From Escherichia phage vB_EcoS_Sponge: a DNA stretch of 44,887 bases. The translations under genes were made by a program, and so were the position numbers. The notes under the pieces were generated by a model. That model was not told where the DNA came from. It saw only the letters and a program-made list of their open reading frames with translations, and searched no databases. The stretch is taken from sequence record NC_073081.1, one strand, 5' to 3'. Shown in pieces: positions 19,401 through 28,899 of the stretch (its first letter is position 1; every line of letters begins with the position of its first letter).

Positions 19401-19679
19401 CTACGCGACCAATTCAGCAACCAATAAATCGCAGTCGGCTATGTTGTCGATAACACGAACGTCCGCACCGCGGCGGGCCATTCGCTCATGTTCACGTACC
19501 TGGTGCGGCTTCGGTTTTCCTCCGGGGCGCTTCACTTCGACGAACACTATTTTGCCGTTGATGATAATAATCAGGTCGGGCGCACCCGCGCGCCCCTCCC
19601 ATGCCAGTTTTCGGCAGAATCCGCCAACATCTTTCACCCGTCTCATCAGGTGGCTTTGAATCTTGCCTTCTGGAGTCAT
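19401..19679 (-). CDS. VRR-NUC domain nuclease
   Basis: 92 aa; PD-(D/E)XK signature APDLIIII...VFVEVKRPGGKP typical of VRR-NUC; start ATG overlaps polymerase stop (TAATG). Confidence 0.6.
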   Translation of the reverse strand: MTPEGKIQSHLMRRVKDVGGFCRKLAWEGRAGAPDLIIIINGKIVFVEVKRPGGKPKPHQVREHERMARRGADVRVIDNIADCDLLVAELVA

Positions 19680-21970
19680 TACTTCCTGTACCTGTACATA
19701 ATGTCGCCTTCGGCGGCAAGGGGGAAGCCTTTCGCCCATATAGGCAGGTCGCACATCAGCGCGCAAAGCTCCTCGGTCGTGTAGTCGTCGGTGTCCGGCA
19801 CTTCGGTGATCAATTCATCATGCACCGATAGAACGATTTCATAGCCCGCAGCTTCAACGCCAGGCATGGACCATGCGAGAATATCGCGGCACAACGCCTG
19901 TACGATGTTCTCCGTCAGTTTGCCGCCGTAGGTGTACTGGAACCCCCACTGGCGCGTCGTCTGATTCTCGCCCTGATATTTAATGCGGGTGCTGGTGCGC
20001 TTCTTGCCGGTGTCTTCGTCAATCTCGGTCGTGACCGACAGCGCGATGCCGGGGTAACTCATGATGCGCCCCGACGGCAACTCAATTTTCAACCACCACC
20101 CCGCGGCGTTCGGGTCGTCGCGCTCCTCGTCAAAGGTTGGGTCGTGCTTCGCCTTCGTACGGACAATCTTGAGCGCTTTTCTACCGTCCGGGCGAACGGT
20201 AGCGCCAGCCCAGTATGCTTTGCCCGGATTGCGTATTGCACACAACACCGCGTCCTCAAGCTCGGCCCAAAAGGCTACCGTCTTCGGGTGCGCCTCTCGC
20301 CACATGCGTTTAATCGCATCACACGTAAGCCATACGTTTTTCGGCAGTATGTAAGTCGGGCGCTCGTCCTTCTTGCCCGGCTTCGGCGGTCGCTTCGCTT
20401 CGTTAATGCGGGCGTACTCATAACCCCGTTTAGCCGCTGCCCAAATGTGATCGGGGAATGTGCCCTTCATTACGTCCGCCATCGCGTAAAGGTCGAGGCC
20501 CAGGTTTTTAGCGAACTGCAAGAACGCCGCGACGCCGCCACCATAGCCCAGCCCCAATTCGCACGCCTTACCGATCTGGCGTAAGTCCTTGCGGTTAGCT
20601 TTAATGTAGTCCGGGTCCAGGCCGAACATCTTACCGGCAGTCTCACAATAGATATCGCGACCGGCCTTAAACACCATTAGCGCGGTTTTCTCGCCAGCGA
20701 TCCAGGCGAGGCCACGCCCTTCCACGTTGGAATAGTCCGCTACGACAAACTTCTTACCCTTAGCCGGAATGATGCACCCGCGAACGGTCGAGGCGGTCAG
20801 CTTAGATATGTCATACGCCCAGTGTGCGGTCCCGCGTAACAGGGAGTTGATGCCGTTGGTGAGCATGTGCGACCGGACCCAAAACGAGACGTCGCTCTCG
20901 CCTTCGCGGCGCTTAATCTTCCCTTCGTGGTCGTCGCTATACTCGCCGCGTGCCAGGTTTTGAGGCTGGAAGCCTTTACCGGCCCAGCGTAGCGTGCGCT
21001 TTGCACCACCATACTGAAGACACCCACGGCGTCTACCATCGGCAGACAGACCATTAACGAGCGGATTGTACTTAGTCGATGCCGTTGATGACGCGCCGAG
21101 GCGCATTTCGATAAGCGCTTTGCCTTCGTCGGGGAAGTCCGGGTCTTCAAGCAAGTCGTTAAGTGTGGATTTCTGCGCGTTGTGGATCGTGAACGCCGGG
21201 GCGATATCACGCAGGATTGGCAGGAAGTCATTGCCTGTCAGTTTACCGCCAAATCGCTCCCAGGCTTCTTCCTTCAATTCTTCCTTATGCGCCTGCACCG
21301 CTTTGATCGCGGCGTTCGCCAGTTCAACGTCCACATAGAAGCCGCGGTCGTTGATCAACTGGTCGATAAGCAGGATTTCATCTTCCTTCGGAGTATTACC
21401 CCAGTCCGGTATGCGCCAGTAGACTTCACGCATTGCGATAATATCCAGCGCGGCATAGCGCAGAAATTTGGCCCATTCTTCCGGGTGAGTCTCGCGGGTG
21501 TATCGGCGGATTTTGTAGGTCTTAGGGGTGGGCTTACAGAATCGTTTAATCAGCGCCTTGCCTGCCTTATCCTTCGCGTGCTCTGCGTCAACGCCCAGCA
21601 CCTGGCACTGCATATCGAGGCTACCGGGCAGCGCGTGGCGAAAGGCCATAATCATGGTGTCTTCGATCTGGCTTACCGGCAGGTCGATTCCCCACTTCTC
21701 ACGGATAACCAAGCGGTCAAACAGGAGGCCGTTAGCCATCACGATTTTTGCTTTCTTGCGGGATACCTGACGGAGCGCCTTGCGCAGTTCCCGCGGCATT
21801 GTTGGGGATTCAGTGGCATCCCATGTCTGCACGCGGCCCTCGTCGATGGCGTATGTGCAAATCATAATCTCGGTGGTTGGGTGCTCTGCGTAGGCGTACG
21901 CCCCTACTTTCTTCAGGTCAACCCCGCTGAATGTCTCGGTGTCGAGAAACAGGCGTTCGAAGTCTTTCAT
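19679..21970 (-). CDS. family A DNA polymerase with 3-prime-5-prime exonuclease domain
   Basis: Exo I LFLDTET; Pol A motif A VADYSNVEGRG, motif B RQIGKACELGLGYGGG, motif C SVHDELI; 763 aa. Confidence 0.9.
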   Translation of the reverse strand: MKDFERLFLDTETFSGVDLKKVGAYAYAEHPTTEIMICTYAIDEGRVQTWDATESPTMPRELRKALRQVSRKKAKIVMANGLLFDRLVIREKWGIDLPVSQIEDTMIMAFRHALPGSLDMQCQVLGVDAEHAKDKAGKALIKRFCKPTPKTYKIRRYTRETHPEEWAKFLRYAALDIIAMREVYWRIPDWGNTPKEDEILLIDQLINDRGFYVDVELANAAIKAVQAHKEELKEEAWERFGGKLTGNDFLPILRDIAPAFTIHNAQKSTLNDLLEDPDFPDEGKALIEMRLGASSTASTKYNPLVNGLSADGRRRGCLQYGGAKRTLRWAGKGFQPQNLARGEYSDDHEGKIKRREGESDVSFWVRSHMLTNGINSLLRGTAHWAYDISKLTASTVRGCIIPAKGKKFVVADYSNVEGRGLAWIAGEKTALMVFKAGRDIYCETAGKMFGLDPDYIKANRKDLRQIGKACELGLGYGGGVAAFLQFAKNLGLDLYAMADVMKGTFPDHIWAAAKRGYEYARINEAKRPPKPGKKDERPTYILPKNVWLTCDAIKRMWREAHPKTVAFWAELEDAVLCAIRNPGKAYWAGATVRPDGRKALKIVRTKAKHDPTFDEERDDPNAAGWWLKIELPSGRIMSYPGIALSVTTEIDEDTGKKRTSTRIKYQGENQTTRQWGFQYTYGGKLTENIVQALCRDILAWSMPGVEAAGYEIVLSVHDELITEVPDTDDYTTEELCALMCDLPIWAKGFPLAAEGDIMYRYRK

Positions 21971-22137
21971 TGCTTAATCCTCACTACGGCGTCGGCGCTG
22001 CCGATCATGGAGAAGATACCGTCGGAAAGGGTTATCTCCTCGCCGTTGTTGCGAATCTCGGCAACGGTGAAATATTCCCCCAGTAGCTTGGACCATACTC
22101 GCATTCCGACTTTTACTTCGCTGGCTTTAATGCGCAT
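21967..22137 (-). CDS. small hypothetical protein
   Basis: 56-aa ORF (MRIKASEVKVGMRVW...), AGGA SD, stop overlaps polymerase start (ATGA). Below the 60-aa track cut-off. Confidence 0.35.
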   Translation of the reverse strand: MRIKASEVKVGMRVWSKLLGEYFTVAEIRNNGEEITLSDGIFSMIGSADAVVRIKQ

Positions 22138-22196
22138 TTTTCATTGTCCTATTAAAAAAGCCCGCATTAAGCGGGCTTGAATAGTGGGCTTTGCCC

Positions 22197-22979
22197 TTAA
22201 CGGCGGCGACGTTTACGTGGTGCTTCGTCTTCGTCGTCGTCCTCATCTTCGTCATCGCGTGGCTTACGACGTTTACGAGGTTTCTCATCTTCATCTTCGT
22301 CGTCGTCATCGCGGCGCTTGGATTTTTTGGACTTGCGCGGCTTGTCGTCTTCGTCATCGTCATCACGACGTTTTGACTTTTTGGACTTGCGCGGGCTTTC
22401 ATCTTCGTCATCGTCGCCCAGGTCTTCGTCTGAGCAAGAAGACCCGCCACCGCCGAAGGCTTCGCCGTCATCGCGGAAGCGCAGACCCAAAAGACCAGCA
22501 CCGAGTCCCTTGCCGTTGGTATTGTTCCACGCCCAAATATCCAGGGACACATTGCAATAACAACCGGAGTAGATCTCCTGGCCTTCGATCTCGTCGCCTT
22601 CTACGGTCAGACCTTGTTCCGTCTGCTTCTCGCCGAGTGACGTTTGAATGATCGGCTGTTTGAACGATTTGGCGTTGATGTACAACATGCCTTCGAATTC
22701 TTCGGTTACTTCGTCGCGCTCGTCACCGTCGCGAACTGCGCATTCCTTAGAATCCTGGGCGTAGTGGCGGTCCATCCACTTATCAGCATTCTTCTCGGAT
22801 TTCAGCTTGTCGGTGAGCACTGCGCGCGCTGCCGCTTCCACTTTGTCCACCTGCGGATCTTCTTTATCAAGGAGAATCACTGCACGGTATGCCGGTTTTT
22901 GTCCATCCTGTTTAGGGGTATCACGTTCCCAAATTTTAAGGAAACATACGCGCACATTTTTCAGGTTGACTTTAGCCAT
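22197..22979 (-). CDS. DUF2815-like single-strand DNA-binding protein with charged low-complexity C-terminal tail
   Basis: N-terminus MAKVNLKNVRVCF typical of DUF2815; ATG 22979 with GAGGA SD; C-terminal DDDDED/PRKSKKSKRR repeats encoded by a tandem ~54-bp DNA repeat (about 22325-22420). Confidence 0.55.
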   Translation of the reverse strand: MAKVNLKNVRVCFLKIWERDTPKQDGQKPAYRAVILLDKEDPQVDKVEAAARAVLTDKLKSEKNADKWMDRHYAQDSKECAVRDGDERDEVTEEFEGMLYINAKSFKQPIIQTSLGEKQTEQGLTVEGDEIEGQEIYSGCYCNVSLDIWAWNNTNGKGLGAGLLGLRFRDDGEAFGGGGSSCSDEDLGDDDEDESPRKSKKSKRRDDDDEDDKPRKSKKSKRRDDDDEDEDEKPRKRRKPRDDEDEDDDEDEAPRKRRRR

Positions 22980-23069
22980 TTTCCAATTCCTCATTTTCAC
23001 ATGTATCGGGGTTATTATGAGCCACCCCGTTCGGCTTGGTTGCTAATCTACTTGGTTGCGCCTAAGCGG

Positions 23070-23312
23070 TCAAGCACTTTTATTAAAAAGATTTCTGGTC
23101 ACGTAGTTGGTAGCGTTCTCGACCCAGCTTAACGGCGGTCGGTCGATGTTCTTCTCCACCCAGTCGACGGCAGCGTCACTATATCCGTCGTCAAGCCAGC
23201 GGGTCGGATGGCGAATCATCCAGGCTACCATTAACACGCCTTGCACGCAATGCAGGATAAAGCCCAGCGCGCCGAGCAAAAACATCAATAAGATCGCAAA
23301 TACTTTATTCAT
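23070..23312 (-). CDS. small membrane protein
   Basis: 80-aa ORF with two hydrophobic segments; overlaps exonuclease stop. Confidence 0.4.
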   Translation of the reverse strand: MNKVFAILLMFLLGALGFILHCVQGVLMVAWMIRHPTRWLDDGYSDAAVDWVEKNIDRPPLSWVENATNYVTRNLFNKSA

Positions 23313-24735
23313 TGCTTAAGTCCTCGTCAGTAGCTTCCGACCACGCAGGGCGCGGGTCGTCGATCGGTGCTAACACCGGTTTGGCGGGTGCGCGCGTGAT
23401 TTTAGCACACAGCTTCGCCCACACTTTCGGTTTTTCGTCCTTCAGTACCTTCTCGGCATCGGTCGGGCTGAGCAATGTTTCTTTGTACATCACATCGCGC
23501 TTGATCCGGGCCTTCGTGAAGATTTCAATCACTTCGCTCTCGTCCGCCCACTTACGGATCCCTTCCTTACCGGCAACCATCTTGAGGCCCAGCGATTCGC
23601 CATCGCCCGCCATGACCGCCTTGAATACCGCGGACTCGATAGCCTTGATGTGCTGGCGCATCGCATCAAGGCCTTCATAAGCCTTGCGCAGTTCCGCCGC
23701 GCTCATAGCGCCGGGGGCCGCTTCTTTCTTACCACGCTTCGCACGTCGGGCCGCCTTCCGGGCTTCGCGGGCCATATTGCGGTCGTGATTGGCGCATTCT
23801 TCCTCGGTCGCCACGCTCACGTCGTCGCCCAGGTCTTCGTCGGTTGCCGTTGGCGGTGTCATCGTGTCGATTGCGGCCTTCGCCCGGACGCTGCACTGGT
23901 CCGCAAATCTGCACCACTGGCACGCATCAACGCTGGGCCGGAAGTCTGCGCGGGTGAGTCCCTTCTTGCCTCGGGAATACGCCTCCAGTGCGGCAATAGC
24001 GCGCTTGGATGCAAACTTCGCGAATATCTCCAGCGCTTCTACCGAAATATCCCACTCCGACGCCCCGCCGCAATACGGCTGGAAGATAACCAGGCGAACG
24101 GTCGTAATGTCGTACATAGTTTGCAGCTTGCGTAGCAGGCCGAGCGCGTACAACATAAGCTGTTTGTTTTCTTTCGCCTCGACCTTATGCCGCCCAGTCT
24201 TCAGGTCGCCAACAATCAGCATGTACGTGCCGTCGGTCTTCTTCATTACCATGACCATATCGGCAGTACCGAACGTTTTAATCCTGTTGCCGTCGATCTC
24301 GAAGCCTGAATGAAGGACGCGGGTCAGGTCGGCGCGCATCTCAAGCTGAACAAACTCCGCCACTTCAAGGAGCGGTCGCCAGTGGTCGATGTATGCATCG
24401 CACTGTTTCACCATATCGTCGTTGACCAGTACGCCGCCTTTCGGTGCTTTTGGGTGGGCCTTTACCGGTCCCTTGCCTTCGTTCTCGACGTAACATCCTT
24501 TATACGTCTTCGCAGTTATTTTCTTCTCACCGGCGATAATGCGGTTTAGCACGACTTCAGATACGGTGTGCATACTCGTACCGTTAATCGCGGCTTGCCC
24601 GGATTCGTTCGGGATATCTTTTTCGACCACCAGGGCGGCAGGGCAACCCATCCATTTTTTAGCACCGGATGGTCCGAGTAATGAATGTTCCGTATTGCTA
24701 CCGGATTGCGTTTTACGTTTTGGTTTAATCGCCAT
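23305..24735 (-). CDS. Cas4/RecB-like PD-(D/E)XK exonuclease (DUF2800-like)
   Basis: GDLKTG, QLMLYALGL (QxxxY) and Cys cluster CQWCRFADQC characteristic of RecB-family/Cas4-like nucleases; 476 aa. Confidence 0.65.
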   Translation of the reverse strand: MAIKPKRKTQSGSNTEHSLLGPSGAKKWMGCPAALVVEKDIPNESGQAAINGTSMHTVSEVVLNRIIAGEKKITAKTYKGCYVENEGKGPVKAHPKAPKGGVLVNDDMVKQCDAYIDHWRPLLEVAEFVQLEMRADLTRVLHSGFEIDGNRIKTFGTADMVMVMKKTDGTYMLIVGDLKTGRHKVEAKENKQLMLYALGLLRKLQTMYDITTVRLVIFQPYCGGASEWDISVEALEIFAKFASKRAIAALEAYSRGKKGLTRADFRPSVDACQWCRFADQCSVRAKAAIDTMTPPTATDEDLGDDVSVATEEECANHDRNMAREARKAARRAKRGKKEAAPGAMSAAELRKAYEGLDAMRQHIKAIESAVFKAVMAGDGESLGLKMVAGKEGIRKWADESEVIEIFTKARIKRDVMYKETLLSPTDAEKVLKDEKPKVWAKLCAKITRAPAKPVLAPIDDPRPAWSEATDEDLSNE

Positions 24736-25353: not shown

Positions 25354-25866
25354 TTAATCTTCCAGTTCGAAATAAGTTTCGACGATTTCTTTTAGCTCTT
25401 TGTGGAAGTCTTCGACGTCGTCATCTTCCAGCTTAGCGATTGATTTGATCTCGAACGATTCCAGCAGGTCGTCGAATTCGTCGTTCGCATCGTCGTCGTC
25501 ACCACCGGCAATAATCGCGGCATACTGTTTGATCTCGTCGCGCATCTCTGCCAGCGGATCGGCATCTTTCTTGCCTTTGCCTTTTGCCGGTGCTTTTTTA
25601 GACTTAGCCGGTTTTTCGTCTTCGGCATCGTCGTCATCTTCTACGACTTCTTTTTTAGCCTTACCTTTCGCCGGTGCTTTTTTAGATTTAGCCGGTTTTT
25701 CGTCTTCAGCTTCATCGTCGTCATCTTCGACAACTTCTTTTTTGGCCTTAGACGGCTTCTTATCTTCCTGTTTACCAACGGCAGCGCCAACGGCTTCATA
25801 ATGCTTTGCAATGGTTTCCAGTGCTACTACTCCGCGAGTGATCAGGTTTACGATTTGCTCAAACAT
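25354..25866 (-). CDS. first leftward early gene: acidic/lysine-rich tandem-repeat protein
   Basis: ATG 25866 with GGAGAT SD; 29-aa unit KKEVVEDDDDEAEDEKPAKSKKAPAKGKA repeated twice (87-bp DNA repeat about 25571-25744); strongly acidic C-terminus. Confidence 0.55.
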   Translation of the reverse strand: MFEQIVNLITRGVVALETIAKHYEAVGAAVGKQEDKKPSKAKKEVVEDDDDEAEDEKPAKSKKAPAKGKAKKEVVEDDDDAEDEKPAKSKKAPAKGKGKKDADPLAEMRDEIKQYAAIIAGGDDDDANDEFDDLLESFEIKSIAKLEDDDVEDFHKELKEIVETYFELED

Positions 25867-26089
25867 GGTATATCTCCGATTGGTTAAGTTTAGGTGTCGG
25901 CAGTTAACTTCGTCGGTGGCCTTAACATATTGCCAGGTTACGCGTTCTCCCGTTCGGGTAGTGGACCTGGTTATATAATCACGGTTGGGAATCCTGACAC
26001 TTCGATCCGGCCCCTGCGTTGCCCCTCTCCAGTTTGCGTCCTGCATCCTGTCTCTCCAGTTTGCGATAGATTGGTTGTCGACGGAGTGA

Positions 26090-26634: not shown

Positions 26635-28899
26635 ATGAGCTTAATTAAATTCGCTGTAACAAGACCCGCTAAAAAAGGCGAAAAAGCCAGGGCGGAAAAC
26701 TTCCAGATGACGACCGATGAATTTTTCGAATTTATCAAAGATGCGAAAGAGATATCGTCTGTGCATATCAACAAGACGGAAGATAAAGCCGAGTATGCGC
26801 GCCGCAAGCGTAAGGCCGATGGCATCGTAGCGTATACCAGTGACGGCTTACGCCGCAAGACCAGTGCGGTGGACCGCTCGATCCTGTTCTTCGATATTGA
26901 CCGTACCGACACCCGCACCCTACGCCGCTGCCGTAAGGCTTTCATCGACGCGGGGCTGGAGCACGTATTTCACACCACAACCGGCGACCGCCACCCGCTG
27001 AAAGGCGGCACGCGTTGCGCTCGATTCCTGGTACTCACGGACAAGCCTGTACCGGCTGAAGACCTGGGCCGTGTCCAGTATGCGCTATTACACCAACTTG
27101 GTCTGTCAGATGTGGACTTCGACGATTGCACGAAAGACACAAACCGCCTGATGTACCTGCCACACCAGCAGTCTGTTATTAAGTGCCACTACGGCAAGCG
27201 TGCCCGCGTCCGTCGTCTGCTTCGCCTGGCTGATAAGTTGGGCGTGGAGAAGGAGGAAGTACGCCGCGAGCTTACCCAGGGCGACGACGCAGTGGCAGAC
27301 GGCATTCTGGACTGGTGCTTCCAGGCAGGATTCGAGGCGTTATCTTCCGGTCGCGGTTATGAAGTGCCGTGCCCGAACGAACATCTGCACAGCGGCGAAG
27401 GGTCGACGGCTATCATGGTCAAGGATGGCGAGATCCGTTTCAAGTGTATGCACACCGGCAACGAGTGTTGCTCGGAACTGAACAGACACCAGCACCTGGC
27501 GCTACGTCTTATCGGGATCCCGGACCACCTGAACGTCGAGCCGCACAACATGTCACGTAAGCAAATCGCCGCCATCCTTCCGGGACTGGACGATGAGGAA
27601 GTGGAATCGTGCTATGAACATATCGTTGATGCGGTCGGAGACGGCGACGAGTACGGCGTGTGTACTGATGCAGACCTGGACAACGAGCCGGTCGCACTGT
27701 TCAGTAAGCACGACCCGATCATCGAAGGCCTGGTCAACTTCAAATCGACCTGGTATCTCGCCGGTGAGTCGAACATTGGCAAGTCGTTCTACGTGCTGGG
27801 CCAGATGGCGTCAGTATCTGCCGGTATTCCGTTTGGCGGGGCGAAGGTCGTCCAGTGCCACAACTTCTATTTCGATGCGGAAGGTGGCGAAGCCTCCAAC
27901 CAGCGTAAGGAAGCACTGCAGATCAAATATGAGCACGACCTGGACAAGCTGCACATTATCGATCTGCAATCACGCGGCTGGGATATCACCAGCAAATCCG
28001 GCTTGCGTGAAGTTATCAGCTTCATCAACCGCACCGCTAACGGCGAGCCGGTTGGCCTGGTGGCGTTCGACTCACTCAACCAGACTGTTGCGCTGCGGTC
28101 CGCCGATGCAAAACCGTTCGACGAGAACAACGCCAGCGATATGGGCGAAGTGGTCAAAGCGCTGAAGGCCATTGCGGAAAATACAGGCGGCAGTGCGGGC
28201 GTCATCCACCACCCGGCGAAAGGTTCAAACGGCAGCAGATCTCCCCGCGGGTCCGGCGCGCTGCATGGTGCTGTCGATTCTGCGTTCTTCCTGGAACAGC
28301 CGGACGACAACCAGCCCGGACAATTGAACCTGTATCATGAGAAGTCACGTAATGGCATCAAGCAAGCGCCGCGCGGATTCGTCCTGCTCAAGTGCAAGGT
28401 TAAGGTGGATCTCCGCAAGTCCGAAGCGTTCGAAGCCCACCAGTCCACCAGCACCGGGCCGGACTTCGGTGATGTGGTTGCCGGTTGGGACGTCAAGCCG
28501 ATCGCATCCACGCCACGCGACGAGACTCTTTACCTCGTACCTGTCGCCCTTGCACCGTTCGCCATCGAACAGGCGAAGGCCGCGGGCAAGGCCGCAGTTA
28601 AGGAAGAGAACTCCGCAGGACCGCGCAACGAAAAAGAGAAAGTGCTTTATGCGGCACTGGAAAAACTGATGGAAGATAACCCGGACCATACCGGATTCAG
28701 TAAATCGGCAATTGTCCGCCAGGCTGGGCTTGCGAAAGGTGGCACATCGACGAAGGCAATTGACGATATGGTGGAGCGCGGCGTGCTAGGTTTTTATACA
28801 GATCCGCATACCGGGGCCATCTATGGGTCGTCGAATATCGTCATAAAAACGAATATACCCATCACGCTTTCGGCGACCGATGACGACCTTAAAGATTAA
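26635..28899 (+). CDS. primase-helicase-like replication initiator (Zn-binding motif + P-loop NTPase + C-terminal DNA-binding-like region)
   Basis: Cys/His cluster CPNEHLH...KCMHTGNECC; Walker A GESNIGKSF; Walker B-like GLVAFDSLN; HTH-like C-terminal segment FSKSAIVRQAGLAKGG; 754 aa. Confidence 0.65.
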   Translation: MSLIKFAVTRPAKKGEKARAENFQMTTDEFFEFIKDAKEISSVHINKTEDKAEYARRKRKADGIVAYTSDGLRRKTSAVDRSILFFDIDRTDTRTLRRCRKAFIDAGLEHVFHTTTGDRHPLKGGTRCARFLVLTDKPVPAEDLGRVQYALLHQLGLSDVDFDDCTKDTNRLMYLPHQQSVIKCHYGKRARVRRLLRLADKLGVEKEEVRRELTQGDDAVADGILDWCFQAGFEALSSGRGYEVPCPNEHLHSGEGSTAIMVKDGEIRFKCMHTGNECCSELNRHQHLALRLIGIPDHLNVEPHNMSRKQIAAILPGLDDEEVESCYEHIVDAVGDGDEYGVCTDADLDNEPVALFSKHDPIIEGLVNFKSTWYLAGESNIGKSFYVLGQMASVSAGIPFGGAKVVQCHNFYFDAEGGEASNQRKEALQIKYEHDLDKLHIIDLQSRGWDITSKSGLREVISFINRTANGEPVGLVAFDSLNQTVALRSADAKPFDENNASDMGEVVKALKAIAENTGGSAGVIHHPAKGSNGSRSPRGSGALHGAVDSAFFLEQPDDNQPGQLNLYHEKSRNGIKQAPRGFVLLKCKVKVDLRKSEAFEAHQSTSTGPDFGDVVAGWDVKPIASTPRDETLYLVPVALAPFAIEQAKAAGKAAVKEENSAGPRNEKEKVLYAALEKLMEDNPDHTGFSKSAIVRQAGLAKGGTSTKAIDDMVERGVLGFYTDPHTGAIYGSSNIVIKTNIPITLSATDDDLKD

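Follow-up and report, generated by a model that had tools for sequence, protein, structure and literature searches.

The 44,887-nucleotide genome of Escherichia phage vB_EcoS_Sponge (NC_073081.1; this whole stretch of DNA is called the window below) is a complete Dhillonvirus (HK578-like) genome and encodes on its minus strand an SSB, a protein that binds single-stranded DNA, with a long C-terminal tail of alternating acidic and basic blocks. The gene is part of a minus-strand replication module in the order DUF2800 exonuclease, 80-residue open reading frame (ORF), SSB, hairpin, 56-residue ORF and family-A DNA polymerase. The SSB ORF is listed at 22197-23000, where 22197-22199 is the stop codon. 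Its start codon is likely the ATG at 22979, which follows a GAGGA box 9 nucleotides (nt) upstream, yields a protein of 260 residues and corresponds to the start given in the literature for the SECphi4 orthologue. Of the three candidate start codons, only the ATG at 22979 has a well-spaced Shine-Dalgarno box, which makes the ATG at 22994 and the GTG at 23000 less probable.

An original prediction, made from the letters of the window alone, had called the protein a DUF2815-like SSB, and this identity was borne out by profile, sequence and structure comparisons. The translation scored 108.3 bits (cut-off 26; E = 4.4e-31) against Pfam PF10991 (Enc34_ssDNA-bd, formerly DUF2815), with the match spanning residues 10-200 of the 267-residue ORF translation, and it matched PHROG 112, ‘Gp2.5-like ssDNA binding and annealing protein’, at 1.4e-57. 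Sequence matches in the PDB were 4klk, 4jg2 and the Enc34 ORF6 protein (5odj). In an AlphaFold2 model built from a 66-sequence alignment, residues 1-170 reached a predicted local distance difference test score (pLDDT) of 90-98, and a Foldseek search of the PDB with the core returned 4klk (E = 6.8e-12), Enc34 ORF6 (5odl; E = 9e-12, target-normalised template-modelling score 0.70) and T7 gp2.5 (1je5; E = 3e-6). As judged from the predicted model, these matches show the SSB to be an oligonucleotide/oligosaccharide-binding (OB)-fold protein of the Enc34/T7-gp2.5 type. Among the aromatic residues that might stack on the bases of single-stranded DNA, Tyr137 and Phe168 are invariant in the 66-sequence alignment and Trp68 and Phe175 nearly so.

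Beyond the core, the chain passes through a short Gly/Ser hinge, GGGSSC, into an acidic segment, SDEDLGDDDEDE, and from there into basic and acidic blocks that alternate until the protein ends in APRKRRRR (Table 1). The last 81 residues read SSCSDEDLGDDDEDE, followed by the block series from SPRKSKKSKRR to APRKRRRR. Charged residues make up 79% of this segment, and the net charge of the tail is -8. Like and unlike charges are strongly segregated: the segregation score is 0.454, compared with 0.094 ± 0.036 for rearrangements of the same residues, and none of 5000 such shuffles reached the observed value; an approximate kappa is 0.61. In the AlphaFold2 model, residues 177-260 have pLDDT values of 44-52 and lack secondary structure. 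Together, these results show the 84 residues of the tail to be a polyampholyte with strong charge segregation and predicted intrinsic disorder. They bear out the alternating poly-acidic and basic tail of the original prediction and include the disorder prediction it had proposed as a check. Two of its details needed correction. The charged tail starts at about 22433 rather than at 22420, and the tandem repeat of ~54 base pairs (bp) that it had placed at 22325-22420 is real, while that range holds only the two most similar copies. When the repeat is read in the frame of the protein, 22200-22415 divides into four modules (51, 54, 54 and 57 bp), and each takes the form of an acidic run, any residue, proline and a basic run, at ~54 bp per module.

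Table 1. The SSB gene, the parts of its tail and associated features in the window.
Feature	Position	Strand	Remark
Predicted SSB gene, 260 residues plus stop	22197..22979	minus	Enc34/T7 gp2.5-type ssDNA-binding protein, from sequence
OB-fold core, residues 1-176	22452..22979	minus	AlphaFold2 and Foldseek
Gly/Ser hinge GGGSSC, residues 177-182	22434..22451	minus	pLDDT <50 from residue 177
Acidic segment SDEDLGDDDEDE, residues 183-194	22398..22433	minus	Holds the [ST]D[DE]DL motif; outside the repeat
Basic block 1, SPRKSKKSKRR, residues 195-205	22365..22397	minus	Missing in GeorgBuechner and welsh
Acidic block 2, DDDDEDD, residues 206-212	22344..22364	minus	
Basic block 2, KPRKSKKSKRR, residues 213-223	22311..22343	minus	
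Acidic block 3, DDDDEDEDE, residues 224-232	22284..22310	minus	
Basic block 3, KPRKRRKPR, residues 233-241	22257..22283	minus	Missing in JL1 and SECphi4
Acidic block 4, DDEDEDDDEDE, residues 242-252	22224..22256	minus	
Terminal basic block APRKRRRR, residues 253-260	22200..22223	minus	
Tandem DNA repeat (Tandem Repeats Finder, TRF)	22290..22415		Period 54, 2.3 copies, 85% matches, score 187
Hairpin plus T run, intrinsic-terminator-like	22158..22178	minus	19 nt past the SSB stop codon
56-residue ORF (phrog_10102)	21967-22137	minus	Between SSB and polymerase
Family-A DNA polymerase	19679-21970	minus	ORF listing, Pfam
DUF2800 / PD-(D/E)XK exonuclease	23305..24735	minus	Pfam PF10926, 1.4e-65
Replicative helicase-primase	26635..28899	plus	PHROG 3228, Pfam AAA_25

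The tail is not peculiar to one assembly. A megablast search with positions 21900-23100 returned 153 GenBank phage records of ~44-45 kb each, at 80-99% identity, nearly all of them Escherichia or Shigella Dhillonvirus phages (HK578, JL1, SSL-2009a, SECphi18 and the Bas collection among them). The same tail architecture is found in these 153 records and in independent metagenome contigs, which disposes of the sequencing or assembly error that the original prediction had considered as a way of being wrong. It is scarcely credible that the repeat is an assembly artefact, a DNA-level element such as an origin or a set of iterons, or an overlapping gene, with the charged tail as its by-product. Long ORFs in other frames do cross the tail, one of 141 residues on the minus strand (22127-22552) and one of 155 residues on the plus strand (22184-22651), and two GenBank records translate the SSB tail in another frame. 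Such ORFs are expected where GAN, AAR and CGN codons leave several frames without stops, and they are not supported as genes. Across nine Dhillonvirus SSB genes, each with four modules, the ratio of non-synonymous to synonymous substitution rates (dN/dS) was 0.097 in the tail, at a synonymous rate (dS) of 0.45, and 0.047 in the core, at a dS of 0.38. Tail dS is thus not reduced, while the SSB frame shows strong suppression of amino-acid change. An origin, an overlapping gene or another element acting at the DNA level would be expected to constrain synonymous sites further, and no such constraint is seen; by the same token, the long ORFs in other frames are by-products of codon composition. We therefore rejected both the overlapping gene and the DNA element. 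The low tail dN/dS, at a dS similar to that of the core, indicates purifying selection on the tail at the amino-acid level.

The two records translated in another frame are those of vB_EcoS-22664B1 (L012, MZ234008) and Ioannina (L013, OQ589852). Their deposited SSBs are frameshifted in or just before the tail and read ...AMTKMKHRARLRS... and ...AVHIALTTTW... Small indels account for this: downstream of them the canonical frame stays open and is conserved to APRKRRRR and the stop codon, so the frameshifts are most simply explained as small sequence errors that probably led to misannotation. We accordingly rejected these two phages as natural tail-less mutants. Frameshifted SSB tails of the same kind were seen in the protein cluster representatives P0005 and P0009. 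The SSB repeat is a source of misannotated database entries.

The number of modules in the tail varies among related phages. Four basic blocks are present in the window phage, SECphi18, KarlBarth, Haito, WF5505, rolling and several IMG/VR contigs; three in HK578, JL1, SECphi4, GeorgBuechner, Sloth and LM40P1; two in the IMG/VR contig L005 and the protein cluster P0003; and a single one in phage welsh, whose 202-residue SSB ends in ...SDEDLDNDDEDEAPRKRRRR and which is known from one deposited assembly. The missing module differs between phages. HK578, Sloth and L005, for example, are without one of the two PRKSKKSKRR blocks, and the losses in other phages fall elsewhere (Table 1). All of the tail deletions are in frame and lie at module boundaries. 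Among 58 GenBank records sampled at even spacing, the SSB region was as long as in the window in 46, 49-73 nt shorter in 11 and 175 nt shorter in one. The length variation that the original prediction expected from a tandem repeat, and the copy-number comparison among related phages that it suggested, thus resolve into in-frame steps between one and four modules. What does not vary are the two ends. The first acidic segment and the Arg-rich end are kept in every copy-number variant, including that of welsh, and APRKRRRR was identical in 17 of the 17 in-frame Dhillonvirus tails aligned and is also present in SECphi18; SECphi4 ends in KPRKRRRR. The notion that the tail might be absent without a phenotype therefore holds in part: welsh shows that plaques can form without three of the four modules, but the notion does not extend to the first acidic segment and APRKRRRR, which are always kept.

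This pattern raises the question of whether the modules do anything beyond occupying space. They could be low-complexity filler, generated by slippage, that merely sets a loose distance between the SDEDL motif of the first acidic segment and the Arg-rich end, the only two parts that would matter. Viable isolates with one to four modules, the fact that any module can be the absent one, the ~20% of sampled GenBank records that are shorter by about one module or more, the variable middle between two invariant ends, and the one-module phage welsh are what such a spacer would produce. Filler would, however, drift in composition, and the tail has a dN/dS of only 0.10 at a dS of 0.45. The distribution of such tails in the wider SSB family, described next, also speaks against a spacer, and we consider this explanation, the chief rival of the reading proposed below, doubtful.

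To survey the family, we searched 1.84 billion representative sequences with SSB residues 1-177, a core-only query that cannot be biased by tail composition, and assigned tail types to the 144 complete representatives among the best 150 of 1716 hits. A word-indexed homologue search was rejected for this purpose: it returned nearly only alternating tails, being biased towards shared words of the DDDED type. Metagenome relatives were collected with an alignment-based scan of viral contigs; a single-protein scan confirmed only 8 loci, owing to low-complexity matches. In the core-only survey, 128 of the 144 tails (89%) have no basic block, six have one and ten have at least two. The median tail is 26 residues long and acidic, mostly with a hydrophobic end such as DDDIPF, DDLI or DDLV. 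The claim that the window tail is atypical for SSBs therefore holds even inside its own family. It is not unique to the window phage: alternating tails recur in several clades of the family. On a rough neighbour-joining tree of 258 cores, 89 tips form one alternating-tail clade, made up of the Dhillonviruses and further phages of enterobacterial type; 24 tips form a second, and the remainder fall into some ten small groups. Parsimony demands at least nine changes of tail state.

Alternating tails have several regularities in common. Relatives with ~30% core identity, some of them recorded under Amorphus orientalis (P0096, for which a look-up of the gene context gave no record) and Paraburkholderia aspalathi, have as many as eight modules or more, and these distant tails retain an acidic, hydrophobic tip (DDDDVA, DDDDDI or EDDEIPF). 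The modules of the distant relatives thus sit between the core and a canonical tip, while in the Dhillonvirus clade the tip is absent and the end is basic. Each module is close to charge-neutral: tails with basic blocks are 2.7 times longer than plain ones, yet their median net charge is -9 as against -8. The number of acidic residues follows the number of basic ones (acid = 1.17 × basic + 5.9, r = 0.94), and net tail charge ranges from -3 to -12 within the Dhillonviruses. The junction [DE]xP[KR] occurs 295 times in 130 tails, compared with 23 and 1 occurrences of the reversed patterns; in ten Dhillonvirus tails, no basic block is without it on the N-terminal side. Polarity was counted by motif, since a per-block count over-splits blocks that contain serine. 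The proline at the acid-to-basic junction may serve to keep the tail disordered, as the order acid-then-base would favour a helix. The strict polarity of the junction across distant clades, the close balance of acidic and basic counts (r = 0.94) and the repeated gain of the alternating tail within the family are all difficult to reconcile with a passive spacer. Finally, the cores differ as well: their median net charge is -4 with basic-block tails and +2 with plain tails (Mann-Whitney p ~1e-30, without phylogenetic correction).

A further set of observations concerns the base of the tail. The motif [ST]D[DE]DL occurs only four times in the window, among ORFs of at least 60 residues, and these occurrences fall in three proteins. 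In the SSB it lies at the start of the tail (CSDEDLGDD), with SDEDL as residues 183-187. The exonuclease has one internal copy, TATDEDLGDD, and one at its extreme C-terminus, EATDEDLSNE, and the helicase-primase ends in SATDDDLKD. In the relative L021, which has an SSB of 46% identity, the C-terminus reads VASDEDLNS in the helicase-primase and QASDDDLE in the exonuclease, the SSB contains RANDDDLDDD, and a small ORF after the SSB ends in TATDEDLE. The SDEDL of the SSB aligns with a family-wide motif D-[DE]-F-[DE]-D-L; the form [ST]D[DE]DL belongs to the clade of the window, and D[DE]F[DE]D[LI] is found in most relatives; the loci compared were L021, L008, L023-L025 and L026-L105. The first acidic stretch lies outside the repeat and is a motif conserved in its own right, which the exonuclease has too. 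Reportedly, work from the Richardson laboratory found similar acidic tails on the T7 SSB gp2.5 and the helicase-primase gp4, both docking on the polymerase, which matches the sharing of an SDEDL-type motif among SSB, exonuclease and helicase-primase.

The motif covaries between SSB and exonuclease. In distant phages, the residues that follow the SSB core and those that close the exonuclease read, respectively, AEDDFDDDLDD and AADDFADDLED, SKFKDFGEDDEDE and ERFTDFSDEDE, KPTDFSDLGD and AQPTDFQPVN, and VNDVFDDIS and AADFFTDIT. To quantify this, we compared the first 24 tail residues of the SSB with the last 18 residues of the exonuclease in 16 lineages of less than 60% core identity. Cognate pairs scored 416 in total. 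With the pairings shuffled, the score was 325.6 ± 19.5, and 416 was not reached in any of 200,000 permutations; in a test of six loci, the cognate pairing was the single best of 720 permutations. This covariation is good evidence, at the level of sequence, that both proteins would present the same ligand to one site, which may lie on a common partner or in the SSB's own groove. The exonuclease-SSB gene pair is kept in every relative examined. At residues ~305-350 of the window exonuclease, an acidic stretch comes directly after TATDEDLGDD and leads into a basic block (VSVATEEEC...REARKAARRAKRGKK); the exonuclease of L021 is without this insertion, which looks like a miniature SSB tail module.

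SSBs are usually described as an OB-fold followed by an acidic tail whose extreme tip recruits partners. The window SSB has the disordered, net-negative tail and an acidic, hydrophobic motif, here in an internal position, and departs from the canonical form in that its extreme C-terminus, APRKRRRR, is not acidic with a hydrophobic or aromatic end. The tail is thus an unusual variant of the ordinary acidic SSB tail and no new kind of system: the fold is kept, the acidic hydrophobic motif has moved to the base of the tail, and a poly-arginine end follows up to four modules.

Among the closest known systems is the Enc34 ORF6 SSB (PDB 5ODJ, 5ODK and 5ODL). Both proteins belong to PF10991, have a predicted OB-fold core with an unstructured C-terminal segment and an acidic stretch directly after the core, and have genes for a DUF2800 nuclease and a family-A polymerase as neighbours in the replication module. 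Their cores are only ~22% identical, and Enc34 has a short, exclusively acidic tail (16 of the last 29 residues are Asp or Glu; PMC5686142), whereas that of the window SSB is 84 residues long, contains four basic blocks and ends in a basic one. Without its acidic tail the Enc34 protein binds double-stranded DNA (dsDNA), so the tail confers discrimination between single and double strands; in the crystal, the tail packs on neighbouring molecules, and the last part of it that can be traced enters a neighbour's groove (PMC5686142). The solved relatives are described there with plain acidic tails (PMC5686142). T7 gp2.5 shares the fold class (1je5) and a disordered, net-negative tail at ~11-13% sequence identity. 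Its 26-residue tail is wholly acidic and ends in Phe, in contrast to the internal motif and the APRKRRRR end of the window SSB.

Basic and acidic elements are also combined in T4 gp32, where a basic KRKST ‘LAST’ motif serves cooperativity and an acidic C-domain serves partner binding and self-masking (PMC12424627). The window's RKSKKSKRR resembles the (Lys/Arg)3(Ser/Thr)2 pattern at the pattern level only; the proteins are not homologous, and gp32 carries its two elements once each at opposite ends, whereas the window SSB alternates them up to four times in one tail. Escherichia coli SSB likewise combines a disordered region with a docking motif, and its linker controls condensation and cooperativity (PMC12143593). 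That nearly uncharged linker, in which Gly, Gln and Pro abound, contrasts with the window tail and its 79% charged residues, and the terminal acidic tip of the E. coli protein is missing from Dhillonvirus SSBs. Some PF10991 relatives do end in the E. coli-type tip DDDIPF.

Blocky polyampholyte disordered regions can drive the formation of condensates, as in the C-terminal domain of Caulobacter RNase E. The window tail shares with that domain its alternating charge blocks and high segregation (kappa ~0.6); the two are unrelated. The literature searched, on DUF2815, on Enc34 and on alternating acidic/basic SSB tails, held no description of an alternating-charge SSB tail. A paper that modelled the SECphi4 SSB left out its ‘flexible C-terminal residues’ (bioRxiv 10.1101/2022.08.27.505566).

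Taken together, the tail is shown to consist of an acidic motif at its base, a variable number of modules (one to four in Dhillonviruses, as many as eight or more elsewhere) and an invariant Arg-rich end. The expectation of the original prediction that the tail mediates protein or nucleic-acid interactions is plausible. We propose a composite reading, to which we assign a probability of roughly 50%, in which an electrostatic, multivalent tail gates the DNA-binding groove and aids cooperative and partner binding, with SDEDL as a substitute for the tip. The first acidic segment probably replaces the canonical acidic tip. SDEDL would then do the tip's work of docking and self-masking, either by docking on a replisome partner or by filling the SSB's own DNA groove, for which T7 gp2.5 and the Enc34 crystal offer precedents, and the exonuclease and, in the window clade, the helicase-primase would use the same docking site. 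The modules would act as a multivalent electrostatic ‘velcro’. In free SSB, acidic and basic modules could pair within the chain, such that the tail is compact and the groove gated; on single-stranded DNA, the basic blocks could instead touch the DNA or the acidic blocks of adjacent SSB molecules. The outcome would be cooperative coating, a high local concentration and, together with the exonuclease, assisted strand annealing. The number of modules would tune the strength of the effect rather than act as an on/off switch.

Several observations weigh against this proposal. Phage welsh was isolated as a plaque-former with a single module, so the internal modules are not essential. The literature searched contains no measurement of binding, cooperativity or condensation for such a tail. 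The cooperativity of gp32 shows no salt dependence (PMC12424627), which makes the electrostatic analogy a loose one. The 11% frequency of alternating tails is approximate, drawn as it is from the best 150 of the 1716 core hits. The association of core charge with tail type comes mostly from two large clades and so lacks phylogenetic independence.

The basic blocks might alternatively constitute a second nucleic-acid-binding arm. Here the PR(K/R)-rich blocks would be DNA or RNA binders similar to histone H1 and its SPKK motifs, holding a second strand or a duplex, mainly for annealing and recombination with the DUF2800 exonuclease, and the acidic blocks would mask them. The first basic block indeed reads SPRK, PHROG 112 bears the annotation ‘binding and annealing protein’, the exonuclease accompanies the SSB in every relative examined, cores with basic-block tails are more acidic, and removal of the Enc34 tail unmasks dsDNA binding (PMC5686142). 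Yet the tail as a whole stays net negative (-3 to -12), and most family members pair with the same exonuclease without possessing any basic block. The present evidence does not tell DNA contact from protein contact. On balance we find such an arm improbable.

Dhillonvirus SSBs can also be sensed by bacterial defence. The SSB of SECphi4, a close relative of the window SSB with three modules, binds Retron-Eco8 msdDNA and triggers Retron-Eco8 (PMC13402713; bioRxiv 10.1101/2022.08.27.505566), and the SSB of the Dhillonvirus SECphi18 is a trigger as well (bioRxiv 10.1101/2022.08.27.505566). Repeat-number variation is typical of conflict loci, and the tail could in principle be a DNA mimic or decoy, or alter how SSB-sensing systems (Retron-Eco8, Hachiman, AbpAB) perceive the protein, with copy number set by an arms race. 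The listed Retron-Eco8 escape mutations of SECphi4 and SECphi18 are, however, the core substitution T56P or lie upstream of the gene, and none of those listed is in the tail (bioRxiv 10.1101/2022.08.27.505566). In T7, moreover, the tail is dispensable for triggering (PMC13402713). A role in counter-defence is therefore highly unlikely.

The preferred reading, an electrostatic tail with SDEDL in place of the tip, lends itself to experiment. The natural alleles with one to four modules occur in culturable E. coli phages (welsh, HK578, SECphi4, SECphi18 and the Bas collection) and make testing easy. They constitute a natural test case for how the charge patterning of a disordered tail affects SSB cooperativity, discrimination between single- and double-stranded DNA, and hand-off to partners. 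The covarying motif of SSB and exonuclease, in turn, provides a testable docking hypothesis for the widespread DUF2800-DUF2815-PolA module.

The window contains only one other tandem array with a TRF score of at least 80. It lies at 25565-25750 (84 bp, 2.2 copies, score 273) and is a second in-frame repeat of charge blocks, in a minus-strand ORF at 25354-26046 that encodes a phrog_3127 protein without assigned function; the repeat peptide reads KKEVVEDDDDEAEDEKPAKSKKAPAKGKA, then DDDDANDEFDDLLESF. This repeat varies among Dhillonviruses too, with match spans of 517-538, 601-616 and 628-637 nt for a 607-nt query. A more far-reaching idea is that the two charge-block repeats and the covarying motif displayed by at least three replication proteins (SSB, exonuclease and helicase-primase) form an electrostatic assembly code in the replication module of this small siphophage. 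The code would build a multivalent, condensate-like hub for replication and recombination, with repeat number setting its material properties, for which the SSB would have given up its acidic tip in favour of a basic one. We offer this as a speculation that is unlikely to hold.

The layout of the replication module recurs in relatives down to 30% identity. The hairpin that follows the SSB gene comprises 8 pairs, 6 of them G-C, in the form AAGCCCGC-TTAAT-GCGGGCTT, and is followed by the T run TTTTAATAGG. In the record of phage WF5505, the corresponding site carries a terminator annotation. A terminator-like element at this position suggests that SSB transcript levels may be set apart from those of the polymerase. 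The ORF between the hairpin and the polymerase gene corresponds to the ‘SECphi4 56aa protein of unknown function’. Defence-escaper phages are listed with mutations in this gene or in the region upstream of it (supplement to bioRxiv 10.1101/2022.08.27.505566). Finally, two records labelled with other hosts, ‘Acinetobacter phage NJ01’ (OQ221563; H2/H43) and ‘Campylobacter phage A144’ (MG065648; H19), are 95-97% identical to the window Dhillonvirus, and their host labels likely reflect contamination or mislabelling.

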